DNA of 63,052 nucleotides, filler included, from Stramenopiles sp. TOSAG23-2 (taxonomy: Eukaryota), in assembly GCA_900128395.1 (NCBI GenBank). It is 7 parts of 7 records of this genome, joined end to end, with 100 filler letters (N's around TTAATTAATTAA, not from the genome) between each part and the next. Parts side by side here need not be neighbours in the genome. Positions count along the whole stretch, not along the records: positions 18,083 to 27,016 come from LT650144.1; 6 more parts are not named here. One strand, given 5' to 3'. Under the pieces are notes generated by a model. It was not told the DNA's origin and made no database searches. It was given only the letters and a program-made list of their open reading frames with translations. The first letter of the stretch is position 1; each line of letters opens with the position of its first letter. Below, piece by piece: positions 1,003 through 43,700 of this stretch. A program made the position numbers and the translations under genes.

Positions 1003-3424
1003 GAGGGACAACGCGCCGTCGCCTCACCGAGCGAAAAAAAAATCATCACCAAAAAAAGAGTCACCAAAGCGACAACAAAAAAAACACCGCGCAAGCGCCA
1101 ACGCGCCTACACCAAGCAAAACCCCAGGAGAGGCAAATGATGAAGAGGAAGAGGTAAAGACCAAAAATAGCGATCAACGGTTGGAACAGTTGGAGAAACA
1201 AGTACAACGGTTGGTGGGTGAATCCTCTACAAATTTGTACCTAGATATTTACAAAAGCTTAGGAAAGGCACAGACAATACAAAAAAGCTGGCAAGAGCAT
1301 TTTTGTAAGAAAGTAGGCTCTAATGAAAAATGGGACTGTTTAAAAAAAGTAGATGAGGTTACAAGGGACTTAAAAAAGATTATTAAGAACACTAAGGACG
1401 CCATCTCGCTATCGGATGCAATCAAAGGTATGGGAATTTTCAATGAAGAACCAAAACGAGAACTAATAATAGAAAAACTAGCAGAAAGATTGTCCTCTCC
1501 GTTTCAACGCGTCAAGTTGGAGAAAACAAAAAATTGGGACAATGACGGAACTTTTCTGCCTCTGCCAACCACCCAGGGAATTCCTATCATAACCATTGCG
1601 TTTTGGAANNNNNNNNNNNNNNNNNNNNNNNNNNNNNNNNNNNNNAAAGTCTTCATCGGGACTAGACGCGCGGATGACAACGGAAATGTAGTACCAGAAT
1701 CGTTGTACAATGCATTTACAGGTACAGTGAGAGACCAAATTATCAAAAATAAAATCGACGTCCTTTTTTTGGTCGAGTTAAATGACAAGACAGAGTGGTT
1801 AAAGGATCTTCGGTATAGGCTCAGCCACACTGCGTTGGAGGGAGAAGAAGAGTTTGGCGAATGGGAATACGAAGTAACATACAGCGAGGGAAAAGGTGCA
1901 CCCGGCAATTCCAAGGAGTATTACGGTGTTTTATACAAAAAGAATTTGTTTAAGTTTGAGAAGAGGGATTTGACAGCTGAAGTGTTTTTGGAAGAATACT
2001 ACAAAAATAATAAAGAATCAATTGTGGCAATAAAAGAATTGGAAGAGAAGATAGCAGAGGCGAAAAAAACTAAATTACTTAAGGTTGAAACGGAGAAAAC
2101 TATGGACCTACCAAAAAACAAACGAAAAGTGGTAAGCTGTACGTTACAAACACAATTAAATGATTCTTTTAATGTTACGTTTGTTTTCGGTCATTTAACA
2201 TATGCTAATACAGAAGCTAAGCAAAAGGAGTTTACAAAGGAGTTGAATTATGTCCAAAATGCAATTAAAAATGCAATTTCAGGGGGAACCCCTGGTGTTA
2301 TGTTTTTAGGTGACACAAATATTCACCACGCTCTTGGAACCTATTTTTTCAATAAAAATCGGAGGTACTATCAGTATCCAAGCAATCCATGGAAAGAGAA
2401 TCAGATGAAGATGCTTGACGGCCAAATAGGGGAGACTTCTATCGAGAAACTAAAGGACTTTGCATATACTAAAATAAAGGAATTAATAGATGAGAGAAAC
2501 AAGGAGAGTCCTAAAAATGAAATAGCAAAGGAGCACCAGGATATAGTTGCGGAAATGGTTGAAATGGTTGATAGAATTAAAGAAACAAAAGGAATAGACA
2601 GAATAGATCTAATAGACGAAGTTCTGCCAAATCAACACAGTCAAGGAACCCGAGGAAGTTGTAAGATAAAAGAAATTCTTGCATATGTACCAATCTTCAA
2701 ACACAAAAATACTTACTATGTGTTCAGAAACGATTTAGACGATAAGGCCATATTGGATTTGATACATAAATGGTACAACAGTGAAAGACTTAAAAATGGT
2801 AAGGATACATTAATAAAATGCTTGAAGGATAATAAAAATTTCAAACAGTTTTATCAGACACTTACAAGTAAAGATGAATTTAAATCGAAGATCCCAGGAC
2901 TACTGAAAAATAATGATGAATTAAGAAATTTTTTTACCCAAATAATTGAAGAAAAAGATATAGATGCTAATTCCAATGAAAAGTTAGAGTGGGACGTTAT
3001 TAAAAAGATAGTTGTATTTCACGCAAAAAACAAAGAAATAGAAAAAATAGACAAAGACATAGAAAACTCTGAGAAGATCAAAAAGATTCTCCGGAAAAGG
3101 TATAAGTCGGATAATAAGCTAATTATTGATAAAAAAACCCAGTATTTATTCAACGGCTTAAAACACCTCTTAAATACCCACAAAAACGATGACGACAAGC
3201 AGCAAATTAAATCCACAGCAAGCACCAAGGAGAATAGCAACTGCTACGACGTCATGTGGGCAAACGACAAACTCGAAAAAAAATACATCAAAAACTCGTT
3301 TCGTGTCATCGGCTTGAGTAACAAACATTGGTGGAATGGGACGACGAAAAACAACCTTTCAGACCATTGCATGATTGCTGCCTCGTTTCGGGTGTTAGAA
3401 GAGGATAACGGTGATGATGAATGA
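974..3424 (+). CDS. DNase I-like EEP (exonuclease/endonuclease/phosphatase) protein with a large insertion
   Basis: Ordered EEP motifs: IAFW(N), DVLFLVEL, EYYGVLYK, FGHL, FLGDTN, CYD, LSDH. The frame is open from 974 (the ORF track starts at TTG 1181). There is a 37-N gap at 1609-1645. Confidence 0.75.
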   Translation, partial: WPPKKTKKKPRDNAPSPHRAKKKSSPKKESPKRQQKKHRASANAPTPSKTPGEANDEEEEVKTKNSDQRLEQLEKQVQRLVGESSTNLYLDIYKSLGKAQTIQKSWQEHFCKKVGSNEKWDCLKKVDEVTRDLKKIIKNTKDAISLSDAIKGMGIFNEEPKRELIIEKLAERLSSPFQRVKLEKTKNWDNDGTFLPLPTTQGIPIITIAFWXXXXXXXXXXXXXKVFIGTRRADDNGNVVPESLYNAFTGTVRDQIIKNKIDVLFLVELNDKTEWLKDLRYRLSHTALEGEEEFGEWEYEVTYSEGKGAPGNSKEYYGVLYKKNLFKFEKRDLTAEVFLEEYYKNNKESIVAIKELEEKIAEAKKTKLLKVETEKTMDLPKNKRKVVSCTLQTQLNDSFNVTFVFGHLTYANTEAKQKEFTKELNYVQNAIKNAISGGTPGVMFLGDTNIHHALGTYFFNKNRRYYQYPSNPWKENQMKMLDGQIGETSIEKLKDFAYTKIKELIDERNKESPKNEIAKEHQDIVAEMVEMVDRIKETKGIDRIDLIDEVLPNQHSQGTRGSCKIKEILAYVPIFKHKNTYYVFRNDLDDKAILDLIHKWYNSERLKNGKDTLIKCLKDNKNFKQFYQTLTSKDEFKSKIPGLLKNNDELRNFFTQIIEEKDIDANSNEKLEWDVIKKIVVFHAKNKEIEKIDKDIENSEKIKKILRKRYKSDNKLIIDKKTQYLFNGLKHLLNTHKNDDDKQQIKSTASTKENSNCYDVMWANDKLEKKYIKNSFRVIGLSNKHWWNGTTKNNLSDHCMIAASFRVLEEDNGDDE

Positions 3425-3667
3425 TGAGACAAAAAACAGTTAAAAAAAAGAAAAGGAATCATCGTCTTGATTAGAGAATGGGGATGAAATGACTGAAGAT
3501 ACAAATGTCAATAATAGGGATAATGTGGTTCTCCGACCAGCTCACCCAATGATGGTGGATGAAAAGGGAGAAAGTGATTATAGTGAGTCACCATCAATTG
3601 AGATATATCCTACGAATACTCAGGATTCTAGGGACGAAATGCGTGGTGTTAAAAGAGTCGTATACAG

Positions 3668-4864
3668 TTGACGACAGACTATGTCACAGGCAATGAAACT
3701 TTTGTCAAAGATACAATTGAAAAGGCAATTTCAGATGATAAAGGAGAAGGAGCCCATGGTGTTATGTTTTTAGGCGACACAAATATTCACCACGCTCTTG
3801 GAAATCATTTTTTCAATAAAAATAAGAAGTACTATTATTACCCAAACGATAAAAAAAAAGATGTGACAATGTTTTATGAGAAGAACTTAAAGGAGGGGGA
3901 CACTTTCGACATGAAACTAAAGAATTTTGCTAGTGAAACAGCCTTTAAATTACTGCAAAATGAGAGTATGGATATTTTGACAAACTATTACAAAATTGTG
4001 AGCAAGGAAACGGTGGAAGAGCAATACGAAAAAACAAAAAATGATTCGAATAATGATGAAGATTCATTTATACTTAAACTATCCAAATTACTATTAGAGT
4101 ATCGACAATTTTGCTTTTCTGATGCAAAAGGAAACATAACTCATAAGTTTGTACCGCATAAAAAGGACAGAAACATGCAAGAATATATCAAGTCTAACTT
4201 CGAAAGAAAAAAAATCGAGGAAAAAAAAATTAAAAAAGGGCTTAGGAGTTATAAACACACATCTTCATACATTTCCAAACCGCTAGATTTCTGGTATGAA
4301 GATGCATCTAAAAAGAAAACTGAGTGGTTGGGAGGGTGCGAGAAATTAAGACAGTCCATATCCAGGGAATTTGAAAAAAAAATAAAAACAATAAAAGAAG
4401 ATGAAGCAGATTTAGAAAAAATTAAACACACCGCAGAGATAATAAATGTTTGGGGTACCTTAAAAAAGAGCAAAAAAAAAATAAAAGAGTATTTGGATGA
4501 TGTTTTTATTATCAATGCTAATGAGCATATGATTAAAGATAAACAGCTGATTAAAGGTGAACAGCTATTTGGCGTGAATAATAATGAAACAAACGACTTA
4601 AACCTCTTGAATATCCATGAGCACAAAGAAGGCAGAATAGAAAAAAAAAAAATTACATCTACCATGAGCAGCAAGGAGAATAGTTTGTGCTACGACGTTA
4701 TGTGGGCAAATGAAGATCTGAATACAAAATACATCAAAAACTCGTTTCGTGTCATTGGCTTGAGTAGCAAAGATTGGTGGAATGGGGCAACGAAGAACAA
4801 CCTTTCAGACCATTACATGATTGCCGCCTCGTTTCGGATTGAAAAAGAAAGATTGATTTTGTAG
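3668..4864 (+). CDS. Second EEP paralog, C-terminal half only, with a different insertion
   Basis: GVMFLGDTNIHHALG and CYDVMWAN...NLSDH are near-identical to the upstream gene. The N-terminal N/E/H motifs are absent. The start is TTG, overlapping the small ORF 3489-3671. Confidence 0.65.
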   Translation: MTTDYVTGNETFVKDTIEKAISDDKGEGAHGVMFLGDTNIHHALGNHFFNKNKKYYYYPNDKKKDVTMFYEKNLKEGDTFDMKLKNFASETAFKLLQNESMDILTNYYKIVSKETVEEQYEKTKNDSNNDEDSFILKLSKLLLEYRQFCFSDAKGNITHKFVPHKKDRNMQEYIKSNFERKKIEEKKIKKGLRSYKHTSSYISKPLDFWYEDASKKKTEWLGGCEKLRQSISREFEKKIKTIKEDEADLEKIKHTAEIINVWGTLKKSKKKIKEYLDDVFIINANEHMIKDKQLIKGEQLFGVNNNETNDLNLLNIHEHKEGRIEKKKITSTMSSKENSLCYDVMWANEDLNTKYIKNSFRVIGLSSKDWWNGATKNNLSDHYMIAASFRIEKERLIL

Positions 4865-7951: not shown

Positions 7952-8091
7952 ATTGAAAATATGTACTATTCTTTGTACACCGTATACTCCATAACTATTA
8001 TCCCCTATGTACTGGCGACGAATTGAAAATATGTACTATTCTATGCACACCGTATACTCCATAACTATTATCCCCTATGTACTGGCGACGA
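7952..8091. repeat. Tandem duplication, 70-bp unit x2
   Basis: ATTGAAAATATGTACTATT...GTACTGGCGACGA at 7952 and 8022, with 2 mismatches. Confidence 0.9.
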
Positions 8092-8808
8092 AGGCGCGGA
8101 CCGAAAACAAGCGGTATGTGCGTACGAACGAATTATTCCATATATGATACGATGTTATTATTTTAACATGTATGTTTTTTTGGATAAATTTCGGAACATA
8201 TTTTGTGGAAAAAAAAATTGGCGTCAACTTAGTGCCGTACTTATTATAACTATCAAAATATTATACAATGGTACGTCTATACAACCAAAAATGGACCTGA
8301 ATAAATTGCAATGGGCTGGACCGGCTAGCAGGTAAATACAATGGAGTACTTTCACAAAGTTGCCATCTTTTACCAGGCAGGCNNNNNNNNNNNNNNNNNN
8401 NNNNNNNNNNNNNNNNNNNNNNNNNNNNNNNNNNNNNNNNNNNNNNNNNNNNNNNNNNNNNNNNNNNNNNNNNNNNNNNNNNNNNNNNCCAGGTACAGCA
8501 TAGTCTAGCAGCGGCCGCAGCATAATATCCAGTATCCAGTAGACGAAGACGAGACACAGCAATACATCATAACACGGAAAAAAGACGGTTAAAACCAACA
8601 AACTTCATCACTTTTAACATAAATATATATTATATATTGGTTCAATTAGGAGATGGAAGAATCAACTGGAACAAGATTATTATAGTATACAGAGATAGAT
8701 AGACAGACAGAATAGACAGATCAAATAGACAGATCAAATTAGTCATAATACTAATAAAAGTACTCTATTTCAAAATAATATATATATATATATAACAACT
8801 ACAAAACC

Positions 8809-9046: not shown

Positions 9047-9894
9047 GGACCAACCATTGTCTTGGGTGACAATAGGTTGTGGTTGCAATGCACAAAATTA
9101 TCACGAGTTTGTAACGTTGGCAAGTGATGAATCTTGGGTTTTTGCTCCCTGATGTTTTGTTGGTTAGACTGCACGTCTGGAGGTAAATTCTTCCCATCTG
9201 AAGTGTGTACTACAAAAGGAACTGTTTCCAAAGTTGATTTATCATTGTATACATCATAGAGCCTAGCCTGGTTAAATTTTAAAGTGATCGCCCGGTGACT
9301 ATGATTTTGAATGATATCCTCTTTGGATAATAGTTTTTTGCAGCATACAGTATTCACATGATGAATCTCATTCTGTTGCGCATTCTTGGTGTTTGTGTTT
9401 ACGTAATAAAGAACGTCTGGTTTGGCCTTTTCATCAAAAAAGTTATTGTCATTATTCCTAATATCATGCTGCTCATAATAATTTGATAGAATGCCGGTGT
9501 TGTTTTGTTGTTTAGACTGCACGTCTGGATGTAAATTCTTCCCATCTGAAGTGTGTACTACAAAAGGAACTGTTTTCAAAGTTGATTTATCATTGTATAC
9601 GTCATCGTCCCTAGCCTGGTTAAATTGGAAAGTGATCGCCCGGTGACTATGATTTTGAATGATATCCTCTTTGGATAATAGTTTTTTGCAGCATACAGTA
9701 TTCACATGATGAATCTCATTCTGTTGCGCATTCTTGGTGTTTGTGTTTACATAATAAAGAACGTCTGGTTTGGCCTTTTCATCAAAAAAGTTATTGTCAT
9801 TATTCCTAATATCATGCTGCTCATAATAATTTGATAGAATGCCGGTGTTGTTTTGTTGGTTAGTCTGCACAACATTTAATATATTGTAGAACAC
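9047..9894 (-). CDS. Hypothetical ORF built from two in-frame 116-aa (348-bp) tandem repeats; runs off the scaffold
   Basis: TTAG(A/T)CTGCAC recurs at 9164, 9512 and 9860 (period 348). The frame stays open, but the start is GTG only. Confidence 0.45.
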
Positions 9895-19620: not shown

Positions 19621-20459
19621 TTGTAAGGCAATATAGTCTTATTGTTTACGAATATATATAAATAGAGTTTATCCAGTCTGTATTGAGTAAAATAGAAACA
19701 ATTTGTTGATAGTTATAGTGTATGATTTGCAATCGTTTTAATTGATATTAAATGTATATATATATACTTTGTGTTAATACTATATATAGTGCCTGGAGTG
19801 CAATCTGCAATCCAGCAAAATGTTGATTCCATGCCAGCCGGGCCAGCCGGGCCAGCATTTCAATTACTGGGGTAGAACACTACCAGGTACAGTTTGTGTC
19901 ATACCATTAATATGTACTTGTTAGTATACTTTATTTCATCATCAAAATACTATTTGGCCTATTTTTCAATGCTGTGTAGCGTTAATTTCCAACATGGATA
20001 GCTCATTTAAAAAATATGTTTTTAACTAATTTCCTTCCTCGAACCTTTGTTTAGGATTAAATGAATATGGAAAGAAGAATATGTCACTGGAATATACATA
20101 TCCACCTCGTGAAAAATTAGTTTGAATATTAACACTACACACTATTGAAAATGTATTGTTGATAGTTATTTTATACATATATATAATATAGTAACAAGTA
20201 CAATATTGTTGTAACACAAAATCCAGAGTCCAGTCTAGTAAGACACAGGTAGGAAGATAGCATAGAGCATAGACACAGCATCGGAGCTACAAATAATATA
20301 GGGTAAATAAAATATACTAACAAGTACAAATATATGAAATTTGGTAAAATCTGGTAGTGTCCTGCTCTAATTACAAAACTACAAACAAATACGGTATACT
20401 TTATTGATACAGTAATGAATTTAGAATACAAACTCTATGCCTCTGTCACCTATCACACC

Positions 20460-20615
20460 GATTTTACCCTATCAAATGACACATAATTTATACTTGAAAG
20501 GGATATCAGAATATTAAAAATTCTCTCCCAACCACGCCACCGACCACCGACCATCCGACATTCTCTATATCAAATGTCAATTATGTGTACTTGAAAGGAA
20601 TATTAGAATACCAAA
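20460..20615 (+). repeat. Dispersed repeat family (TATCAAATG...TACTTGAA...AGAATA), 2 units
   Basis: The same motif order recurs at 49885-50167 on another scaffold. Confidence 0.7.
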
Positions 20616-20997: not shown

Positions 20998-23628
20998 ATG
21001 CAAAATTCAAACAACAAAATCAAATCAAGTACAAATGTACAACAAGTATCAAATGCAGAGAAAGATTGCATTGAAACTTGTATGCACTCGTTGACAGTAA
21101 CAGTTCGACGAAACATTGAAAGTGAGGTGACGTATTCATCGCAAGTGAGTGCCATCGTCAACTCTAGAAAGTTCCTTCTATCAAAGATTTATGTAGCAAT
21201 GGAAAAAATGAAAAACTTTTCTACAAATGCATTGCGTCATTTTGTAAATTTGTTTATGAAGATTAGCGATTACAGCAATATGCACTTGGAAAAAAAGTCC
21301 CATGTATGGATAGTCGTAAACTTCTTCCGCTGTTGTTGCAAAAACGAATACAACAAGATGAAATGCGTAGATTTTGTATACAAGTTGTTGGTACATCATG
21401 TCAATGCGATGGAAAATGTTGCAAAAGAGTTGAAAATTTTCTCCAACAAGTTTGTTATGAATAGTCATCAATTTGATTCATTTATTAAAATGAAATACGA
21501 AAAATTAAAACCGGAAAACCAAGTGTATTTTGAAGCGGATGCAGAGGAAGAAGAGGCATTTCGCCGCAAACAAATGGAGCTGTTGAAAGAGACAAAAGGT
21601 GATGATGATGGTGGCGATGATGATGATGGTGATGGTGGCGATGATGATGATGATGGCAATGATGATGATGATGATGATGGCAATGATGATAGCAATGATG
21701 GCAAAAAATCTTCTAAAAAATCTTCAAAAAAATCTTCAAAAAAATCATCAAAAAAATCATCAAAAAAAGAAGACGATGACAAAGACAATGAAGACGACGA
21801 TGAAGACGATGAAGACGACGATGAAAATGACGATGAAGACAATCACAACAATGATTCGCCAAAAAGCAAGAAAAAAACAAAGACAGAACGTCTCAAATTG
21901 ATTGAGAAAAAAACTCCTGGTGTATTTGCACAAAGGCAAAAACCCCGCATGTTTGATGGCACTATTGATAATAATATTACCAAGAACTTTCATTTTAGTC
22001 AGCTAAAATTGGACTACAAGACGGAAGTTCATACAGCAATTGAAAATTATTTTGAAAGAAATAAAACAAACTTCAAAGCTCCACGTGGTAAAAACAATCA
22101 ACAAGTTTCGTTTGGATGGGTTACTGGGGCGGATACTGCATCATCATCGTATAACGGAAAACATATCATGAGACAAAGTGTGGCGGAAAATTTTATGGCA
22201 ACATTATCAAACGGTTTACAAATTCATTTAATGGATATATACAAAAAATTGGCGCCGAAAAGTTATATTCAATTATTGAAAATTCCACGAAGGAATTGGT
22301 TGACTCCATTTTGTCCTTTTTTAAGTGGACAGGTAAACATATGTACTGAGTTAAAAACAAATGTATTACGTGAAGAAGATTTAAATCAATTATTTAAAGA
22401 AAAAGATGTTGAAGAAAATGAACATGAAAAAGAAGTCGTTGACAAAGAGCCACAAGAAGAAGAAGAAGAAGAAGAAGAAGCAGAATTGAATAAATATGTA
22501 AACATTTTGTCACCCAATGGTAACGTGAAATTCAATTGTGCGTTTTGGCATTTTGATGGCAACAATGCACCAGGTATTAAGCAAATGAATATATACGATT
22601 CAAACATTGGATGCCAATTGTGGATTTCGTCTGGTAAATTGAAAAAAAATAATATGAATTTGTTTTATTTTTTCGAATCTGGTGGTATCGATGGATACAC
22701 AGTATATCAATGGACCACAGATCTTATGATTGTAATTGGTAACTTTGGAAAATTTGTACATGCCACTACTGGAATGATAATAAGAACTGGTCAATATGAG
22801 AAATTACAGGATGTGTGTTATAGAAATTTTTTCACATTAAACGCCCAAACGAATACAGTTCTGTTATTACAAAAACCCCATTTAGATTTGAAAGTTTTAA
22901 AATATATTGAACAAAAAAGGTTGTTAAACGAATTTGTTGAAAAAGTAAATAGTGGTAAAGATATTGAAATATCTTGGTTTAAAACATATTTGTATGGTGT
23001 TGGAAAAGGCGTTTTTGCAATATTTTATGCAACGTTATTTCAAGAACTTGGATTTATAAAAATGAATCGTGGATATATGCCAGCTTTTAAAGGTATTTGT
23101 GGTTCAATTCGTGGATATTATTTTCTTGTCAATGGACGTGCATATCCATCCATGACTGATTTTATGATCAAGATAAGCAATGATGAGGCTGACAAGGAAC
23201 GTGCGATTCGAGTTAAAAAAAAATTTGATTCTGCATATTTACAAAATCATGTACCACGTATGGTTGCGTTTATTAACAAAATTTTATTAAACAAACCAAA
23301 TAAATTTACTGCATTGGATGTTGAAAATGCATTATGCAAATTTAGCGTTGCATTACGAGATTGCAAAGCAACAAAATCAAGTTCTGGTATTGGCCCAAGT
23401 TCTTTATTGGAAGAGGCAAAAAAATCAATTGCGGTGGATATTATTGATTTAACGGATGATGGTGATGGCAGTGGGGAAGAAAAGATGTATTTAATGGAGG
23501 ATGTTAAAACATCTATGACATCAAACAAAAAACGACGTTTCGAAGAAGACAGTGTGACTGGTGATGAACAAGAAAGTGGATCATCATCAATGTCAAAAAT
23601 AACAAAAAAGGCAAAAAAGGGTGAATAA
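20998..23628 (+). CDS. TET/JBP-family 2OG-Fe(II) dioxygenase fused to an HhH-fold aGPT-PPlase1/5-hmdU DNA kinase-like domain
   Basis: Dioxygenase motifs: RG...SFGW, YKKLAPKSY, PFLSGQVN, HFDGNN (H518/D520), HATT (H588), R609. HhH-fold motifs: LYGVGKGVFA, GICGSIRG, LDVENALCKF. Confidence 0.7.
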   Translation: MQNSNNKIKSSTNVQQVSNAEKDCIETCMHSLTVTVRRNIESEVTYSSQVSAIVNSRKFLLSKIYVAMEKMKNFSTNALRHFVNLFMKISDYSNMHLEKKSHVWIVVNFFRCCCKNEYNKMKCVDFVYKLLVHHVNAMENVAKELKIFSNKFVMNSHQFDSFIKMKYEKLKPENQVYFEADAEEEEAFRRKQMELLKETKGDDDGGDDDDGDGGDDDDDGNDDDDDDGNDDSNDGKKSSKKSSKKSSKKSSKKSSKKEDDDKDNEDDDEDDEDDDENDDEDNHNNDSPKSKKKTKTERLKLIEKKTPGVFAQRQKPRMFDGTIDNNITKNFHFSQLKLDYKTEVHTAIENYFERNKTNFKAPRGKNNQQVSFGWVTGADTASSSYNGKHIMRQSVAENFMATLSNGLQIHLMDIYKKLAPKSYIQLLKIPRRNWLTPFCPFLSGQVNICTELKTNVLREEDLNQLFKEKDVEENEHEKEVVDKEPQEEEEEEEEAELNKYVNILSPNGNVKFNCAFWHFDGNNAPGIKQMNIYDSNIGCQLWISSGKLKKNNMNLFYFFESGGIDGYTVYQWTTDLMIVIGNFGKFVHATTGMIIRTGQYEKLQDVCYRNFFTLNAQTNTVLLLQKPHLDLKVLKYIEQKRLLNEFVEKVNSGKDIEISWFKTYLYGVGKGVFAIFYATLFQELGFIKMNRGYMPAFKGICGSIRGYYFLVNGRAYPSMTDFMIKISNDEADKERAIRVKKKFDSAYLQNHVPRMVAFINKILLNKPNKFTALDVENALCKFSVALRDCKATKSSSGIGPSSLLEEAKKSIAVDIIDLTDDGDGSGEEKMYLMEDVKTSMTSNKKRRFEEDSVTGDEQESGSSSMSKITKKAKKGE
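21600..21845 (+). repeat. Coding low-complexity repeats (GAT/GGC runs; 12-bp SSKK unit x~5; GACGATGAA runs)
   Basis: Read directly; encodes an acidic/basic linker. Confidence 0.85.
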
Positions 23629-23951: not shown

Positions 23952-26585
23952 TTACACAGTTGTCTTGGTATTCATGTTTGTTGTTGGTTCGTTACTAGAA
24001 CTACTACTACTATTCGTTCCTTTTTTTGCCTTATTGTTTGAATGGAATTCACGAAAATCCGTTGAGGTAAATATTGTACCAAATTGTGTATTATAATACG
24101 CAGATATTGCTACCCAATATCCATTGTTGAATGTTTTGATACTTGGTTTTTCCAGTACCTTCATCCAACTCATAATAGTGTTTAATTTAGTTTTATCAAT
24201 TTTTTTCCTCTTTTCTAAGTTCTCTTTTCTTTTTTTATTCACATAATGTCTTAATGAATTAAACCTGTCGCTTTTGGGTATTATATCATAGGCATTAGTT
24301 TTCACTGCTGACGGTGCATACAAATCGTTTAAACCGTAACATTCATGCAAATCATTGCATTTTAAATGATACAATAAAATAAATATTTGAAATTTATCAT
24401 CCAAACGAAATAATTCCCAAATATCTGCCTCTAATAATGCAGAATGCCATTTATTGTTAACATTAGTGTTACTACCTGCTGTGTTATTGTTGGCATTGTT
24501 CATGGTCGTATTGCTACTACCACCTGTGCCGTTGTTACCATTGTTTGTGGTTGCGTTGTTACCACCACCTGATGTGTCGTTGTCAGCATTGTTTGTGGTT
24601 GTATCATACCTATCATTATTATAACACAATGCATTTAATTTGTTACAATACAAGCATTTCTGACATACTTTTTCGATGGTAAATTTTACATTGTCTAATA
24701 CAATTTGTAACGATTCATTTCCGGAGGAGGAGGAGCTACGGGATTCGGTATTTGATATTTGTGCTTTTACAAAGCCGTTGTTCAAAGTTATTGATATACT
24801 TCGATTTACTGGATTCGTGACTGCAGTTATGTTAGCAAATAATCGTAAACATGGTGCATGTATTAAATTACCTATTTGCATGAATTCCTTTTGCAGTGAT
24901 CGACTGTTGTATCCAAACGTCACTGTTGTCTCACCAGTATTACTATTCCTTACAATTCGTTGTGACTCGATTTCAAGAAACTCGCGCTTCAATTCTATTG
25001 GAACAAAATTTTTGTGAGCCTCAACTTGTTCCCACACCCTTAATTTATTATCTGAATTTCGTACTACAACAAGACGTGTCATGTCAAATGCTTCTTTTAA
25101 TAAATGTTGCTCGGATGGAACAAGATAACGGCGACTTATGTATTTCCATAAATATTCTTTATTTTTAACGAAAAAACAATGTCGAAATTTATATGTGATT
25201 TTACCTCCCGTATATTCAACTTCTTTTTTGAAATCATAATTTGCTAAACGTTTTAGCAAATGCTTCCAATTTTGAGTTTTTAAGAAATACCATGATGGTT
25301 TCCTCTTTCTAGTTTTTTCCCAATAAATTTTTTGATCACCTAACAGGGGTGGTAAACTATCGTTCATCTTTTCTACAAGTTTGTCCCCTAGTTCATTATG
25401 AATTTTTGATTGTGCCTTTTTGGCCATGTTCGATGTAGCGTTGGCGTTGGCAGTGTTCAATGTAATGGTAAACCAATCAATATCATTTCCCTCGTTTTCA
25501 TCTACATTTTCCCCCGTTCCATCTGCATTTTCCGTCGTACCCCAACGTATACCAGGAATACTGTTATTGGTACATATGATACCTAATGCTTGTATAAATT
25601 TCACTGTGGTTGGGTCATTTCTTAACTTGGTAATTACTTTCTGGTAATTACTTTCTGCCGCTTCGAACCGTTCATTTGTATTATTATTATTATTATTAAT
25701 ACGTTGTTGGGTAGTATTACCATTGTTACTGTTGTTTTGTCTTGTTGTTGGCAAAGTATTGTTAATAGTACAGGTTGAAAAATCAATACCATTAAATGTA
25801 TTGTTTGCTGATATACAATTCTTAACTCTTGCGCACACGGGTGATGGACGGTGAGGTGCTACTATACCCATCTTTTGATCATAACATACATTTTTATATG
25901 TACTAAGTTCAATTCTTTCAACAACTTGATGACGGGTACCCGACAACGGCTTACACGATGTAATTTTTCCAAGTTTGATGTAAGATAATGGCCCACCACC
26001 TAATTCTCGTGACGATATAAATTGCTCTGCAATTTGTATGTATTTGTATTGCAATTGTTTCAGTGATTCGTTGCTCCCAAGAAACACAAAATTTGACAAC
26101 GCACCTTTTTTGCTCTCTGGTTTCACCACTTTCAAATGAGTATTTATATTATCAAATAAAATTGAAGAGTTGTATGGACAACCTGGACACGTTTCCAAGT
26201 GATTTTGTATACGTGTAACCGATAGGTCCAGGTTGCAGGATATATATCTATCTTCATTTTTCACTTTTTTGATAACATCCGGACATATGAAAGGAGCATA
26301 GTTCCAAATTTTAGTGCTTTTTGTAGAAGCATGTAGCCGGTTAAACCTTCGGGGTGAATACAGTTCCCCGTCTACGTCGTTTGCGCATATATGCATAATT
26401 GCAATTTGCATCCACATATGTTCTTGTATTGTCATAGCGGTACATATGGTTGGCCTTACAGACTCCGGCTTTGATTCTGGCTTATGTGGCATGTTTTTGT
26501 TGAATAAATCATATACTTGTTGATGGAAAGTTTTCTTTCCATTTTTCATATTGAATTCACGTTTGCGCTTACCTGCGTTAATCAT
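23952..26585 (-). CDS. Hypothetical 877-aa protein (basic N-terminus, CPGC and CQKCLYC clusters, Asn-rich linkers)
   Basis: Long ATG-started ORF; no family recognised. Confidence 0.75.
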   Translation of the reverse strand: MINAGKRKREFNMKNGKKTFHQQVYDLFNKNMPHKPESKPESVRPTICTAMTIQEHMWMQIAIMHICANDVDGELYSPRRFNRLHASTKSTKIWNYAPFICPDVIKKVKNEDRYISCNLDLSVTRIQNHLETCPGCPYNSSILFDNINTHLKVVKPESKKGALSNFVFLGSNESLKQLQYKYIQIAEQFISSRELGGGPLSYIKLGKITSCKPLSGTRHQVVERIELSTYKNVCYDQKMGIVAPHRPSPVCARVKNCISANNTFNGIDFSTCTINNTLPTTRQNNSNNGNTTQQRINNNNNNTNERFEAAESNYQKVITKLRNDPTTVKFIQALGIICTNNSIPGIRWGTTENADGTGENVDENEGNDIDWFTITLNTANANATSNMAKKAQSKIHNELGDKLVEKMNDSLPPLLGDQKIYWEKTRKRKPSWYFLKTQNWKHLLKRLANYDFKKEVEYTGGKITYKFRHCFFVKNKEYLWKYISRRYLVPSEQHLLKEAFDMTRLVVVRNSDNKLRVWEQVEAHKNFVPIELKREFLEIESQRIVRNSNTGETTVTFGYNSRSLQKEFMQIGNLIHAPCLRLFANITAVTNPVNRSISITLNNGFVKAQISNTESRSSSSSGNESLQIVLDNVKFTIEKVCQKCLYCNKLNALCYNNDRYDTTTNNADNDTSGGGNNATTNNGNNGTGGSSNTTMNNANNNTAGSNTNVNNKWHSALLEADIWELFRLDDKFQIFILLYHLKCNDLHECYGLNDLYAPSAVKTNAYDIIPKSDRFNSLRHYVNKKRKENLEKRKKIDKTKLNTIMSWMKVLEKPSIKTFNNGYWVAISAYYNTQFGTIFTSTDFREFHSNNKAKKGTNSSSSSSNEPTTNMNTKTTV

Positions 26586-27016: not shown

Positions 27017-27116
27017 NNNNNNNNNNNNNNNNNNNNNNNNNNNNNNNNNNNNNNNNNNNNTTAATTAATTAANNNNNNNNNNNNNNNNNNNNNNNNNNNN
27101 NNNNNNNNNNNNNNNN
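27017..27116. other. Artificial scaffold linker
   Basis: N44-TTAATTAATTAA-N44. Confidence 0.98.
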
Positions 27117-30359: not shown

Positions 30360-30780
30360 GACGCTTGTATCCCTTGCTGTGTCAATGCTATTATATTAGC
30401 AGGTGCATAGCAGTGAAAATGGATGGGAAACTGTGTGTATCCCTTGCCGTGTCAATGCTATTATATTAGCAGGGGCATAGCATTGAAAATGGATGGGAAA
30501 CTGTGTGTATCCCTTGCCGTGTCAATGCTATTATACTTAGCAGGTGCATATAGGAGCGAAAATGGATGGAAAATTGGGCAACAATTGATCACTAACAAGT
30601 ATAAGCTTCCTACTATCAAAACGGCAAAAATGATTTCAATATAGATTCCAGATTCCCCCCACTATGCACCTGCTAATACAATAGTATGGAGATAGCACAC
30701 ATATATGTTCCATTTTCACTCTGCTATGTATCTGCTAAATATCAGCAAGCCGGGCAAGCCTGGCAAGGGATACAAGCGTC
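30360..30780. mobile_element. 421-bp MITE-like element with perfect 18-bp terminal inverted repeats
   Basis: GACGCTTGTATCCCTTGC (30360-30377) and GCAAGGGATACAAGCGTC (30763-30780). Internal 70-bp tandem units start at 30366, 30436 and 30506, with diverged inverted copies at 30660-30760. Confidence 0.8.
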
Positions 30781-39989: not shown

Positions 39990-40735
39990 TTACACTTCCT
40001 TTTTTATCTTCTTCCTCGTTGGATATAAAAGCCATTTCATTAATATTACATCATCTTTACAAATAAAAAACAACCCAATACCATATAATACAATCCATAG
40101 ATGATCATAATTTGGAAAATCTTTTAATAGAAATGCACGATATATTTCACGTACCTGCCATAACCAATTACATAAACAACAAACTGTATATGCAACAAAT
40201 GAAACTAATCGTATGATAACCATACCGAAGCTATTTTGATCATATAAAACCCGTAGTGCCAAAAATAAATTAACACTAAATGCATATGCTGACCAATATC
40301 CATATACATCAATACATCGTGTTATTTGAGATGAAATTGATTGAGAATCAGATATATCAGTACACCATAAGATAAGAAGAAATGCAACAGTGATTATGTG
40401 ATGCATTTTAGTAGAATATGGAAGCTTCGGTACAAAAATCAAGGCTAAAAAATCAGTGCAAACATACCAAGTAGCCCACCGTCGACAAAGCTCAAAACTA
40501 TGATAATCTAAACGCAAAGCATAATCATGATGTAATTGCCAACTCGGAAATATTCCTGTATGTGGCCCAGTTAGTGCAACACCCAAAAAAAAGCTTTTAC
40601 TAACATTTGCAATTACATACCATTTTTTATGGGTTGGACTAATTTTTTGAAACCTTGGGTAAAATGTATCTAATAAATAATAAACTAATATCCAAATGGC
40701 AGCTACAATAAGATATAATATTCCAGTTTTATATG
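39990..40735 (-). CDS. TLC (TRAM/LAG1/CLN8)-like membrane protein, 5'-truncated
   Basis: KWYVIANVSKS, YVCTDFLAL, STKMHHI, FSVNLFLALR, CNWLWQ, DDVILMKWL. The frame stays open upstream of TTG 40586 with no ATG. Confidence 0.6.
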
Positions 40736-43700
40736 CTTGTTCAAATTGGGTGTATGACAGATAATTTAGGGAGAATTATGTTAATCGATATGGATGATAT
40801 GAGTATACGAAGAATTTGGAAAGGATATAGAAATGCTCAATGTGGGTGGATAGTAAATGATGAAGGACGAAAGAAAGAATTTCTAGTTATCTATGCGCCA
40901 CAACGTTCGCTGATTGATATTATGAGTTGTACATATGGTCCTCGTGTCGCTCGAATACATGATCCAGTATTGTTAACAGATGGACGATTATTATATTGCA
41001 ACAATTTAAATTCAAATTCAACAATTACTAATAAATTTTCCTTCTCTAGATGTTTCTTTTTAAAACGAGATAAGACTGTGATTGGCAATTTAACAAAAAC
41101 AAGTGCAAAAAGCAACCCAGCAAAAATCGATTTGTTTGAAATTAAATTAGATCAAAAGGCAAATCAAATTATTAAACATGCATTAATATCATCTATTCAT
41201 CAAGATGAAGGATATTTGCTCCATCGATTTTTAAATAGCTTGAATTCATTTGTGAATGCTATAAAGGAGCAAGAACAAGCGAAAGTTACAGAAATGGTAC
41301 AGAATGTTAATGAAAACAACAACAGCGTATTCGATTTAAAAAATAATATCACATCATTGGATATAGAGTCACTGAAAAAAGTGAAAGCACCAATACTACT
41401 TGTAAGAGCAATTGGTGAAATTCATGAAGCTATGCTAAGCTTACCGTTTATAACGCCAAACGAATCCTTCGCAGCAGGGTCGTTATTATTTCCAACCAAA
41501 TCGCTTATATCTATACTGACCGTAATTTACGATGGCTTGCATAATTCATTGCACAGTGAGGATAATGAGATGAGTCCAAATGATGTGAAGAAATACATGA
41601 AATCCTTGAAAGTCAAAATAGATTTGTCAAATGCATATATGATATTAGAGAAAATACCAATGGAAGAAACATTTTCAAATATTGAAACGTTATATCCGCG
41701 TGACATCAATAATAATGACAATGAGAATAATGATAGTGATGATGAAAATGGATTTACAAGTAGTAATGTTGGTAAACAATTTAATGATTGGTCTCAATTT
41801 TATAATAAATATATTGCTATATTGAAAGATGAAAATGAGGACGATATGGAAGATGATGATGATGATGGCATCATGTTGGATGATCAAGATGGAAAGACAG
41901 ATTCCAATGCATATCATGTTTTACGAATCAACCCTTATTCGTTTTTATTATGCTTCCAAACTAATGAGGATTCAACATTATCTTTGTCAGGTTATTGCAA
42001 TCAAAACAAGCATATTAAAAAATCTTTACTTCGTTATATATTTCAGACGTTACTACTTCATTCATTCAATCTGAAGCTTTTATTTGATTTTCAAGATAAA
42101 TTACGTAAAATGGGTTTCGAATCAAAGCAAATATTAGATTTATTTTACGAATGGTTTTACAGTGTTCCTCTACAGGTTTTATTGCATGTAAGTCCTGAAA
42201 ATTTAAAAAACAATTCGTCTATTGTGAAGTGGCTGCACACATTTACTTTAAATTATCATGTTTATGTGAAAAATCCGTTTTTAATAGTACCATCTATTAC
42301 TACATCAAAAGATCAGAAGAAGAAAGGCAGTTTTATTTTTCATAACATGCTTATAAATTACATTTTGACGATAGTTTGGAAGCAAAAACTACAATTAGTT
42401 GAAAAAGAAGCATTGTACAATGATATTGAATTGCTATATGATGATGAAGATGATGAAGAAGAAGAACAAGGTAATAGCGGAAATGATGGCAATAGTAACT
42501 CTGTGAAAACAAGTTTAAATGCATATGTAAAATCTTACTTAGAATCTACCACTGGTGAACCACCAGCTGATGATGCTGATGTTGTATTGACGCATGAAAT
42601 GATAGATTTATTGACAGAAAATATTCGCGACACATATTGGAAACAATTGCAAATTCAAAATATCAAATTGGAAATTATTTTATTCATTCGAACATGTACC
42701 AGTATTGTTATTGGTAACTATGTAGCCTACAATGATAAGAATAAGGAAAAGAGTGGTATTTCTCCTACAAGTAGATATGAGAAAGCAAATTGGGTGAATA
42801 AAATTCTAAACCGCATCAATTTAAATACTAACGTTGAGAATATTGAATTTGAATGTGTAATTGCTGTGTTGCAGTTGCTAAAAAATGAAGTGAATGTATC
42901 AAACAATAATTCCAATAGTTATTTAATTGAATATGAAAAATATATATCAAATAGAAGTAATGTATTGAAAAAATATGCAGGTGGAGATGCAAACAATTCA
43001 ACAATTGATTTTATAAAATGGTTTCAAAATGAATGGATTACATCAAAAGATAATTCACCAACGACATCGCTATTTCAAGATAACGACACCAACGAATGCT
43101 CGTTGTATAGCCCGTTTATCGGCTACAACGATGCGTGTAACACAACGTTTTTATTCGATTTGGTATCATCCGATGAAATGGATGGCTTAGAGCTTCTTGT
43201 TGTATTATTTTCCGATTTTATAGATACAAATAATTTAGCCATTCATCGTACTTTATTATTGATGAATGATTTAAATCATGACAAAGCTGGAACTTCGTTA
43301 CAACTGTATAACTACGATCTTTTATATGATAACCAATCAAATAAAAATGACACATCGTTTACTGTGCCGATAAATCATTTAGAAACTGCTATTGCAAATT
43401 TGGATGCAATAAGTGATAATAACAATATCCTGCGTTTGTGTTGCTATTTACAGGTATTTGATCTTTCCATTTTGCATAAGGTAGCTTTTTTGCGTACTTT
43501 ATGGAAAAAAAAGCCATTGGATGGAATTTTATATTTGATTTATGATATGGCAGATATGGATCGTGATGCAAAAGAAAATCGAAGCGTAGTAACAAACGAT
43601 GAAATTAACGAAAATGTCAAAGGTTTGTTAAATAAATTTACACAAGCACCTGCTGGTAGCAATAATACGGATGATCCACAAGCTTATAATCATTCTACTT

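Follow-up and report, generated by a model that had tools for sequence, protein, structure and literature searches.

Among eukaryotes, post-replicative oxidation of thymine has been described in kinetoplastids and, from 2024 onward, in dinoflagellates, whose enzymes were located by iterative similarity search and are termed highly divergent in sequence (PMC11572971, in excerpt). The described TET/JBP 5-methylpyrimidine dioxygenases (PF12851) include NgTet1 (PDB 4lt5), the kinetoplastid JBP1/2, the dinoflagellate CryTJ1 and AmpTJ1, and phage T-dioxygenases, for example gp3 of the Rhodococcus phage Tonitrus. In phage clusters, TET/JBP genes adjoin those of a second family, the amino-acid:DNA transferases (ADDT, PF18724), and the two products act in sequence (PMC11955845; PMC13229309, in excerpt); the first genes of Tonitrus (1–7) encode ParB, a Tet-like protein, ADDT, and a P-loop kinase (PMC11955845). 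Described ADDT proteins include M6 gp51, ViI gp247, PhiW-14 gp109, PaMx11 gp46/PUGT (PDB 8z2m), and PDB 25qc, and their chemistry on 5-hydroxymethyluracil (5hmU) is known from phages only (PMC8989533, PMC11472151, PMC13229309). In the phage thymidine hypermodification clusters each enzyme has its own gene, and a kinase must activate 5hmU. Here, we compare these systems with an open reading frame (ORF) at 20998..23628 (+) of a 63,052-nucleotide stretch of DNA (the window, meaning the whole stretch analysed) from Stramenopiles sp. TOSAG23-2, whose product resembles the TET/JBP enzymes in the order of its motifs.

The frame (P0001) remains open through 876 codons plus a stop in the standard code and is a true protein-coding gene; an ORF of 876 codons would be unexpected by chance at ~31% GC. 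We read its product as a divergent TET/JBP-like Fe(II)/2-oxoglutarate dioxygenase with a helical C-terminal domain assignable to no family, a reading that we hold at a probability of about 45%; neither domain assignment is confirmed by search or fold prediction. Under this reading, aa ~355–625 would form a very divergent dioxygenase of the classical Fe(II)/2-oxoglutarate type and of the TET/JBP kind, with H518, D520, and H588 as iron ligands, either K602 or R609 as the 2-oxoglutarate anchor, and an acidic loop of 52 residues inserted ahead of the HxD strand. By analogy with JBP, the dinoflagellate enzymes, and the phage T-dioxygenases, its substrate would be thymine or 5-methylcytosine in DNA, hydroxylated at the 5-methyl group. 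The remaining aa 626–800 would then act as an accessory module that binds DNA or a modified base, or could be the degenerate remnant of a transferase; a second enzyme is not proven. The protein is most likely nuclear. The ORF, its motifs with their order and spacing, and weak profile alignments are demonstrated, and the fold, metal binding, substrate, and nuclear location are inferred from them.

A dioxygenase-like order of motifs

An earlier note on this DNA had picked out the frame and its motifs by eye and had proposed a TET/JBP dioxygenase fused to a domain resembling 5-hydroxymethyldeoxyuridine (5-hmdU) DNA kinase; the frame is indeed open, and every motif that was named lies where it had been placed. 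The putative N-terminal half of the dioxygenase (aa 355–452; 22060..22353, +) carries PRGKNN (362–367), SFGW (371–374), LAPKSY (418–423), and FLSGQVN (SGQVN at 443–447), and an acidic insert (aa 453–504; 22354..22509, +; D+E 0.40) stands between SGQVN and the HxD motif. The putative C-terminal half (aa 505–625; 22510..22872, +) holds WHFDGNN (517–523), in which H518-F-D520 (22549..22557, +) provides the candidate Fe(II) ligands, followed by HATT (588–591), whose H588 (22759..22761, +) is the candidate distal Fe(II) ligand, and YRNFF (608–612, with R609). The candidate 2-oxoglutarate anchor lies in the span from K602 to R609 (22801..22824, +). The likeness to TET/JBP resides in the succession of these elements, namely G..FG[YW], a helix ending in P, SG.[IV]N, HxDxxN, GG, a hydrophobic strand, H.xT, and a basic residue, and in their setting within a protist protein with long low-complexity linkers.

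Comparators for the profile searches came from Tonitrus, and the first profile was a 30-sequence alignment of its Tet-like clade. With this profile hhalign returned a probability below 1%, yet placed HFD on HRD, and automatic MAFFT alignment set H518, D520, N523, H588, and T591 on the invariant HxDxxN and HxxT of the 30 phage proteins, H588 falling on the invariant His of HGVT. A search of IMG/VR with the phage alignment retained 80 loci that all belonged to the same clade (47–56% identity) and so did not broaden the profile; the second profile, of 14 sequences, added cyanophage MED4-184, Cr30, ACG-2014b, Cressida, and Ottawa. On this profile aa 355–452 aligned to columns 70–165 (score 16.6, E 0.071; reached by 15/228 controls) in a register that sets SFGW on TFG, LAP on P, and SGQVN on SGVIN, while aa 505–625 aligned to columns 159–255 (score 19.2, E 0.031; reached by 4/228 controls), carrying HxD and HATT on the catalytic columns. 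In these alignments the two halves are co-linear and abutting, as chance alignments need not be; all of the dioxygenase profile scores, taken as sequence comparisons, are marginal.

Spacing within the N-terminal half is close to that of the phage family (FG to P, 47 residues vs 45; P to SG..N, 23 vs 27), and several strings recur in single family members, such as TFGW in Ottawa, HRDGNN in Cressida, and the YRN around R609 in MED4-184. A pattern built from the invariant residues of phage TET/JBP, FG[YWF]..P..SG.[IV]N..H.D..N..H..T..R with spacing windows, was found in none of 20,000 shuffles of aa 355–625 and in no other six-frame ORF piece of the window (343 pieces in all, 37,336 aa), a significance that is overstated because the pattern was picked after the matching residues had been seen. 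Members of the family easily escape detection: in the PDB the phage profile picks up NgTet1 alone (E 0.025–0.03), and one phage protein annotated as Tet-like, at 32.2 bits, falls short of the Pfam cut-off of 34.9. The TET/JBP part of the earlier proposal is partly supported, by the placement of HxD…H on catalytic columns and the co-linearity of the halves, but its scores are marginal and no curated model, PDB relative, or predicted fold supports it. R609, named in the earlier note after H588, is present at its position, but hhalign puts K602 on the family Arg column and leaves R609 at His+21.

Several observations weigh against this reading. HMMER with the first phage profile gave −2.5 bits, which 116/500 shuffles equalled or bettered, and MAFFT --add matched 14/52 invariant columns, a count reached by 29/132 shuffles and 17/132 natural segments. 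The hhalign probabilities are 0.3–1.6%, and an unrelated segment from the N-terminus of the protein scores 15.8 on the TET/JBP profile, near the 16.6 of the N-terminal half. Compared with the phage family, SGQVN and HxD are separated by 75 residues rather than 12, with a 52-residue acidic insert between them, and the two His by 70 rather than 50, with ~23 extra residues after HxD; at His+14 there is Lys (K602) and no Arg, the nearest Arg being R609. The motif tests are not independent of the reader's choice because the motifs were chosen by eye. Even with E values of up to 10 admitted, PF12851 matched neither the whole protein nor aa 318–876 nor either half alone, and no sequence or profile score reaches significance. 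Sequence searches of the PDB, halves included, returned no dioxygenase and only acidic-run artefacts, a profile of the protein with its related fragments returned only a kinetochore protein (E 0.76), and PHROGs returned only families of no known function (E 0.03–1.2). Both AlphaFold2 (AF2) models, with a mean confidence (pLDDT) of 34.6 from the single sequence and 42.9 from a 12-row alignment (A6), are unusable, and the catalytic stretch stays below 50 with no confident fold. Finally, two related fragments depart at the proposed ligands: P0007, a more divergent copy, lacks HxD where it would be expected by homology, and P0008 has RN in place of H588. Loss of catalytic activity, or decay to a pseudogene, may have affected some members of the family.

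Other broad searches were likewise negative. A phmmer search with aa 318–800 against 1.84 billion representatives gave no TET/JBP, kinase, or transferase match, tblastn against phages with either half gave none, and a word-indexed homologue search with aa 318–800 found no homologue. A scan of IMG/VR yielded 599 pattern matches and 0 relatives, and a language-model neighbour search with one related fragment (P0002) gave no usable match.

The C-terminal region and rival readings of the protein

The C-terminal region (aa 626–800; 22873..23397, +) is predicted to be helical, being drawn mostly so in the low-confidence AF2 model, and contains GVGKGVF (667–673), AFKGICGSIRG (696–706), and VENALCKF (775–782; 23320..23343, +). 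Profile comparison suggests a resemblance to ADDT. With a narrow ADDT clade alignment (A5) the hhalign E value was 0.055 and HMMER gave −0.9 bits, which 28/1000 shuffles equalled; with an 18-sequence profile that included M6, PhiW-14, Pam3, and Epa5, aa 626–800 scored 25.1 in hhalign (E 0.0044, probability 7.8%). None of 250 controls reached this score, and none of these 125 natural and 125 shuffled sequences exceeded 20.5; the other five segments of the protein score 7.3–11.5 on the same profile. HMMER with the 18 sequences gave 2.4–3.0 bits, reached by 4/2000 and 1/2000 shuffles, whereas six-frame ORF pieces from elsewhere in the window, unrelated to the protein, score as high as 4.9 bits, above the 1.9–2.7 bits of the C-terminal region in that comparison. 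Pfam returns nothing for this region, and PF18724 matched neither aa 631–800 nor aa 318–876, in contrast to the 81.6 bits of Tonitrus gp6.

The label of a 5-hmdU-DNA-kinase-like domain is not supported, since the ORF lacks a P-loop and any kinase-family match in Pfam, and is rejected. The Walker A motif [AG]x4GK[ST] is absent from the ORF, its sole match in the window lying in a 70-aa antisense piece, and Pfam detects no kinase domain among 16 large neighbouring ORFs or elsewhere in the 63-kb window; Tonitrus gp7, by comparison, scores 170.6 bits on Ploopntkinase3. No feature shared with the 5-hmdU DNA kinase, which combines a P-loop and a helical domain, could be demonstrated. The label used in the earlier note had merged two families, the aGPT-Pplases and the P-loop 5-hmdU DNA kinase, and by hhalign the resemblance is instead to ADDT, formerly aGPT-Pplase2. 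The suggestion that the domain might phosphorylate or excise 5hmU falls with it, as neither is ADDT chemistry; if any chemistry is relevant, it is covalent, Cys-mediated group transfer. The worry that LCK stands in place of LCE is moot, because VET[VI]LCKW occurs in the solved transferases 25qc and 8z2m and a Lys after the Cys is therefore normal.

The alternative that survives best, though we think it rather unlikely, is that the gene encodes an orphan, lineage-restricted protein with much low-complexity sequence and a probable place in the nucleus; its likeness to TET/JBP and ADDT would be a chance match, noticed because it was looked for, and it would have no dioxygenase activity. The uniformly negative standard searches, the HMMER and MAFFT --add statistics at control level, the window pieces that outscore the C-terminal region on the ADDT hidden Markov model, and the failure of AF2 to yield a confident fold all favour such a protein, and a reader who had seen the first family was perhaps primed to seek the second. 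It is less easily reconciled with the co-linear alignment of two independent halves to a single family, in which the catalytic residues fall on their proper columns, or with a C-terminal hhalign score above those of 250/250 controls. That both matched families cooperate in phage thymine hypermodification clusters would also be unexpected by chance.

Considerably less probable is that aa 355–625 belong to another oxygenase with a double-stranded β-helix or cupin fold, for example a JmjC-like protein or an RNA hydroxylase or demethylase, with chromatin proteins and not DNA bases as its targets. Every named language-model neighbour of aa 355–625 falls in cupin/JmjC (Cupin_8/JmjC) 2-oxoglutarate oxygenase clusters (0.83–0.87), a lead that counts for the TET/JBP-like reading as well; the long His-to-His distance exceeds that of phage TET/JBP, and low-complexity tracts of acidic and basic residues would be in keeping with a chromatin protein. 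However, language-model scores below 0.9 serve only as leads, as a third of shuffled proteins also obtain ten concordant matches, and Pfam gives no JmjC or Cupin_8 match at any threshold. The FG[YW], P, and SG.[IV]N elements, moreover, match positions that are invariant specifically in TET/JBP.

It is similarly improbable that this single eukaryotic polypeptide performs two steps, in which the TET/JBP-like part would make 5hmU (or 5-hydroxymethylcytosine) and a minimal ADDT-like module would then use C780, helped by E776, to attack C6 and form a covalent adduct, so that a nucleophile such as an amino acid, a polyamine, or a protein side chain could be appended. In favour of this is the hhalign score against ADDT, together with the pairing of exactly these two families in phage clusters. 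The E776-x3-C780 pair of VENALCKF, which aligns with VETSLCDF and VETVLCKW of ADDT proteins, corresponds to the Glu and Cys whose mutation kills M6 gp51 and ViI gp247 (PMC8989533, in excerpt). The stretches NGR..[DE][FM]..K[IV] and D.E[KR]A lie at compatible positions in hhalign's register, in which motifs 2 and 3 are 44 residues apart vs 43 in Tonitrus. The two registers disagree on motifs 1 and 2, as hhalign selects NGRAY.. and DKERA, whereas the earlier note had selected GVGKGVF and GICGSIRG.

Several features of the C-terminal region argue against a working transferase. Only aa 626–665 (~40 residues, in the reader's register) or 626–711 (in hhalign's) precede motif 1, whereas ADDT has ~130 residues there, and the N-terminal helical bundle is missing; the DxDP, Y..Y, and ERR..R blocks of the ADDT alignment are not present before motif 1. 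In PaMx11 gp46 this bundle holds the phosphate pocket and DNA contacts (D24, Y47, Y51, E92, R94, H95, and R97), T244 binds metal, and W146 and K150 clamp the base and glycine (PMC11472151, in excerpt). The equivalent of T244, a Thr invariant in 18/18 aligned ADDT members, is replaced by N777, no Trp or Lys occupies the W146 and K150 positions of motif 1 in either register, and a Pro invariant in all 18 members is missing. In a strain variant, Ala replaces D732, the residue that hhalign sets on the motif-2 column. Unlike the phage systems, with their separate genes, this would be one polypeptide, if the fusion is real, and there is no 5-hmdU DNA kinase in the protein or its large neighbours. 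The C-terminal domain is also covered by no related fragment and is absent downstream of the catalytic core in two of the metagenome contigs described below (L002 and L004). Judged by its sequence, the region may be at most a truncated, atypical ADDT relative, and we return to a TET/JBP-like dioxygenase with an unassigned helical domain as the preferred reading.

Relatives, variation, and genomic setting

Relatives of aa 318–800 recovered by phmmer comprise eight fragments of 53–116 aa with 56–90% identity, which cover aa 318–385, 425–460, and 510–612, with none over aa 626–800; aa 355–452 is the best conserved block in a 60%-identical fragment (P0005). DNA nearly identical to the gene occurs in sequencing runs labelled seawater, marine, or aquatic metagenome (word share 0.27–0.48), and in the seawater run X4 and a run from a single organism, X8, contigs cover 27/30 and 23/30 bins of the gene, mostly at 90–99% likeness. 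Among the 31 of 62 strain differences listed, 14 are synonymous and 17 nonsynonymous; within aa 626–800, those listed are 2 synonymous and 5 nonsynonymous. The overall synonymous share appears to be above neutral expectation and supports a real gene. Three error-free 151-nt RNA contigs (23051–23201, 23312–23462, and 23357–23507), from two oligo-dT runs of one study, hint weakly at transcription, since they could also stem from DNA carry-over. RNA runs X15 and X16 leave most of the gene without coverage, which carries no weight either way.

A segment at 22506..22920 (+), which includes the HxD and HATT motifs, recurs with 90–96% nucleotide identity in four metagenome contigs (L002–L005) that hold only this part of the gene between unrelated flanks. 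They emerged from a second metagenome scan; the first gave 592 pattern matches and 0 relatives because low-complexity patterns had been picked. Two of them (L003 and L005) share a 5′ membrane-protein ORF and so represent one locus. Frame-breaking indels mark these copies: 4 nt are deleted in L003, L004 contains two insertions (11 nt with stop codons, and 333 nt), and L002 has lost 22298–22563 (a 266-nt gap that includes HxD) with a change of frame and runs on into sequence like the ankyrin genes at 52–54 kb of the window. Introns were rejected as an explanation for the L002 gap and the 333-nt L004 insertion, as their boundaries are not GT..AG in frame. The flanks of L002–L005 contain nothing like aa 1–500 or 645–876. 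In related organisms, then, the catalytic-core segment survives in broken form and in other surroundings, while the window gene is intact, and these copies look decayed or transduplicated. In fungi, TET/JBP genes are linked with DNA transposons (PMC12730594, in excerpt), a link that the scattered core copies may recall; we found no terminal inverted repeats around 19.8–27.4 kb and no transposase.

The rest of the protein is poor in recognizable domains. For the N-terminal region (aa 1–199; 20998..21594, +), the only Pfam match is ArgoMid (13.2 bits, E 0.11), and hhalign against both the TET/JBP and ADDT profiles is at noise level. A low-complexity acidic and basic stretch (aa 200–317; 21595..21948, +) with D/G runs and KKSS repeats (D+E 0.39, K+R 0.22) accounts for sub-threshold Pfam matches to BUD22 and Nop52 and for a spike of depth from unrelated contigs. 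The protein ends in a charged, Ser-rich tail (aa 801–876; 23398..23625, +; D+E 0.23, K+R 0.17, S 0.16).

The window is AT-rich (27–39% GC) with long, tightly packed ORFs whose Pfam domains are eukaryotic and in several cases ciliary; among them are TMEM237, DZIP1-like, WD40/EF-hand, Cid1-type poly(A) polymerase, RAB3GAP2, ketopantoate hydroxymethyltransferase, UMPH-1, and ankyrin domains. The host is an intron-poor, AT-rich, flagellated marine eukaryote. The RAB3GAP2_N match in 40733–44920 begins at profile position 326/419 and at residue 5 of its ORF, so that 5′ exons are probably missing and the genome is suggested to have introns. On the opposite strand beside the gene, an unrelated 877-aa ORF (23952–26585, −) with Cys-rich stretches and Asn runs matches no Pfam family above cut-off and has no PDB relative. 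A short dispersed repeat lies 5′ of the gene (20400–20520), with a 60-nt copy of 85% identity near 50.0 kb (50030–50089); the summed contig depth over it is 1927 in X4 and 656 in X8 vs ~10 over the gene, with numerous loose ends at 20468 and 20513–20520. Further repeats include an ankyrin-repeat gene sequence doubled within 52083–54052 (52340–52821 vs 53574–54052, 89.5% identity) and tandem direct repeats at 9150–9870, 30366–30576, and 7952–8092, with units of 373 nt (96.5% identity), ~70 nt (89–91%), and 71 nt (97%), respectively. At 1430–4864, neighbouring ORFs of 664 and 366 aa that match no family share two segments (2248–2381 with 3700–3845 and 3204–3391 with 4650–4837; 79–85% identity) and are thus paralogues. 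A run of N (~27017–27116), an assembly gap, appears as a palindrome artefact in repeat finding.

Possible implications for thymine modification in protists

Literature on eukaryotic ADDT or aGPT-Pplase proteins returned phage papers only, though the architecture may still have been reported already. The aGPT-Pplases were reportedly first defined by Iyer et al. in 2013, who may already list eukaryotic fusions. Neither the bifunctional reading nor that of a dioxygenase alone is secured at present, and the main value of the analysis lies in telling failed tests from weak signals and in naming residues for mutation. If the dioxygenase half alone is real, it would be one more very divergent protist TET/JBP protein, of moderate interest. 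If both modules are joined, the gene would offer a compact enzyme for DNA-labelling chemistry and would suggest that an organism present in marine metagenomes has a DNA modification not yet known. Should the less probable two-step reading prove true, a marine protist would carry a hypermodified thymine made independently of base J, the first such system outside phages.

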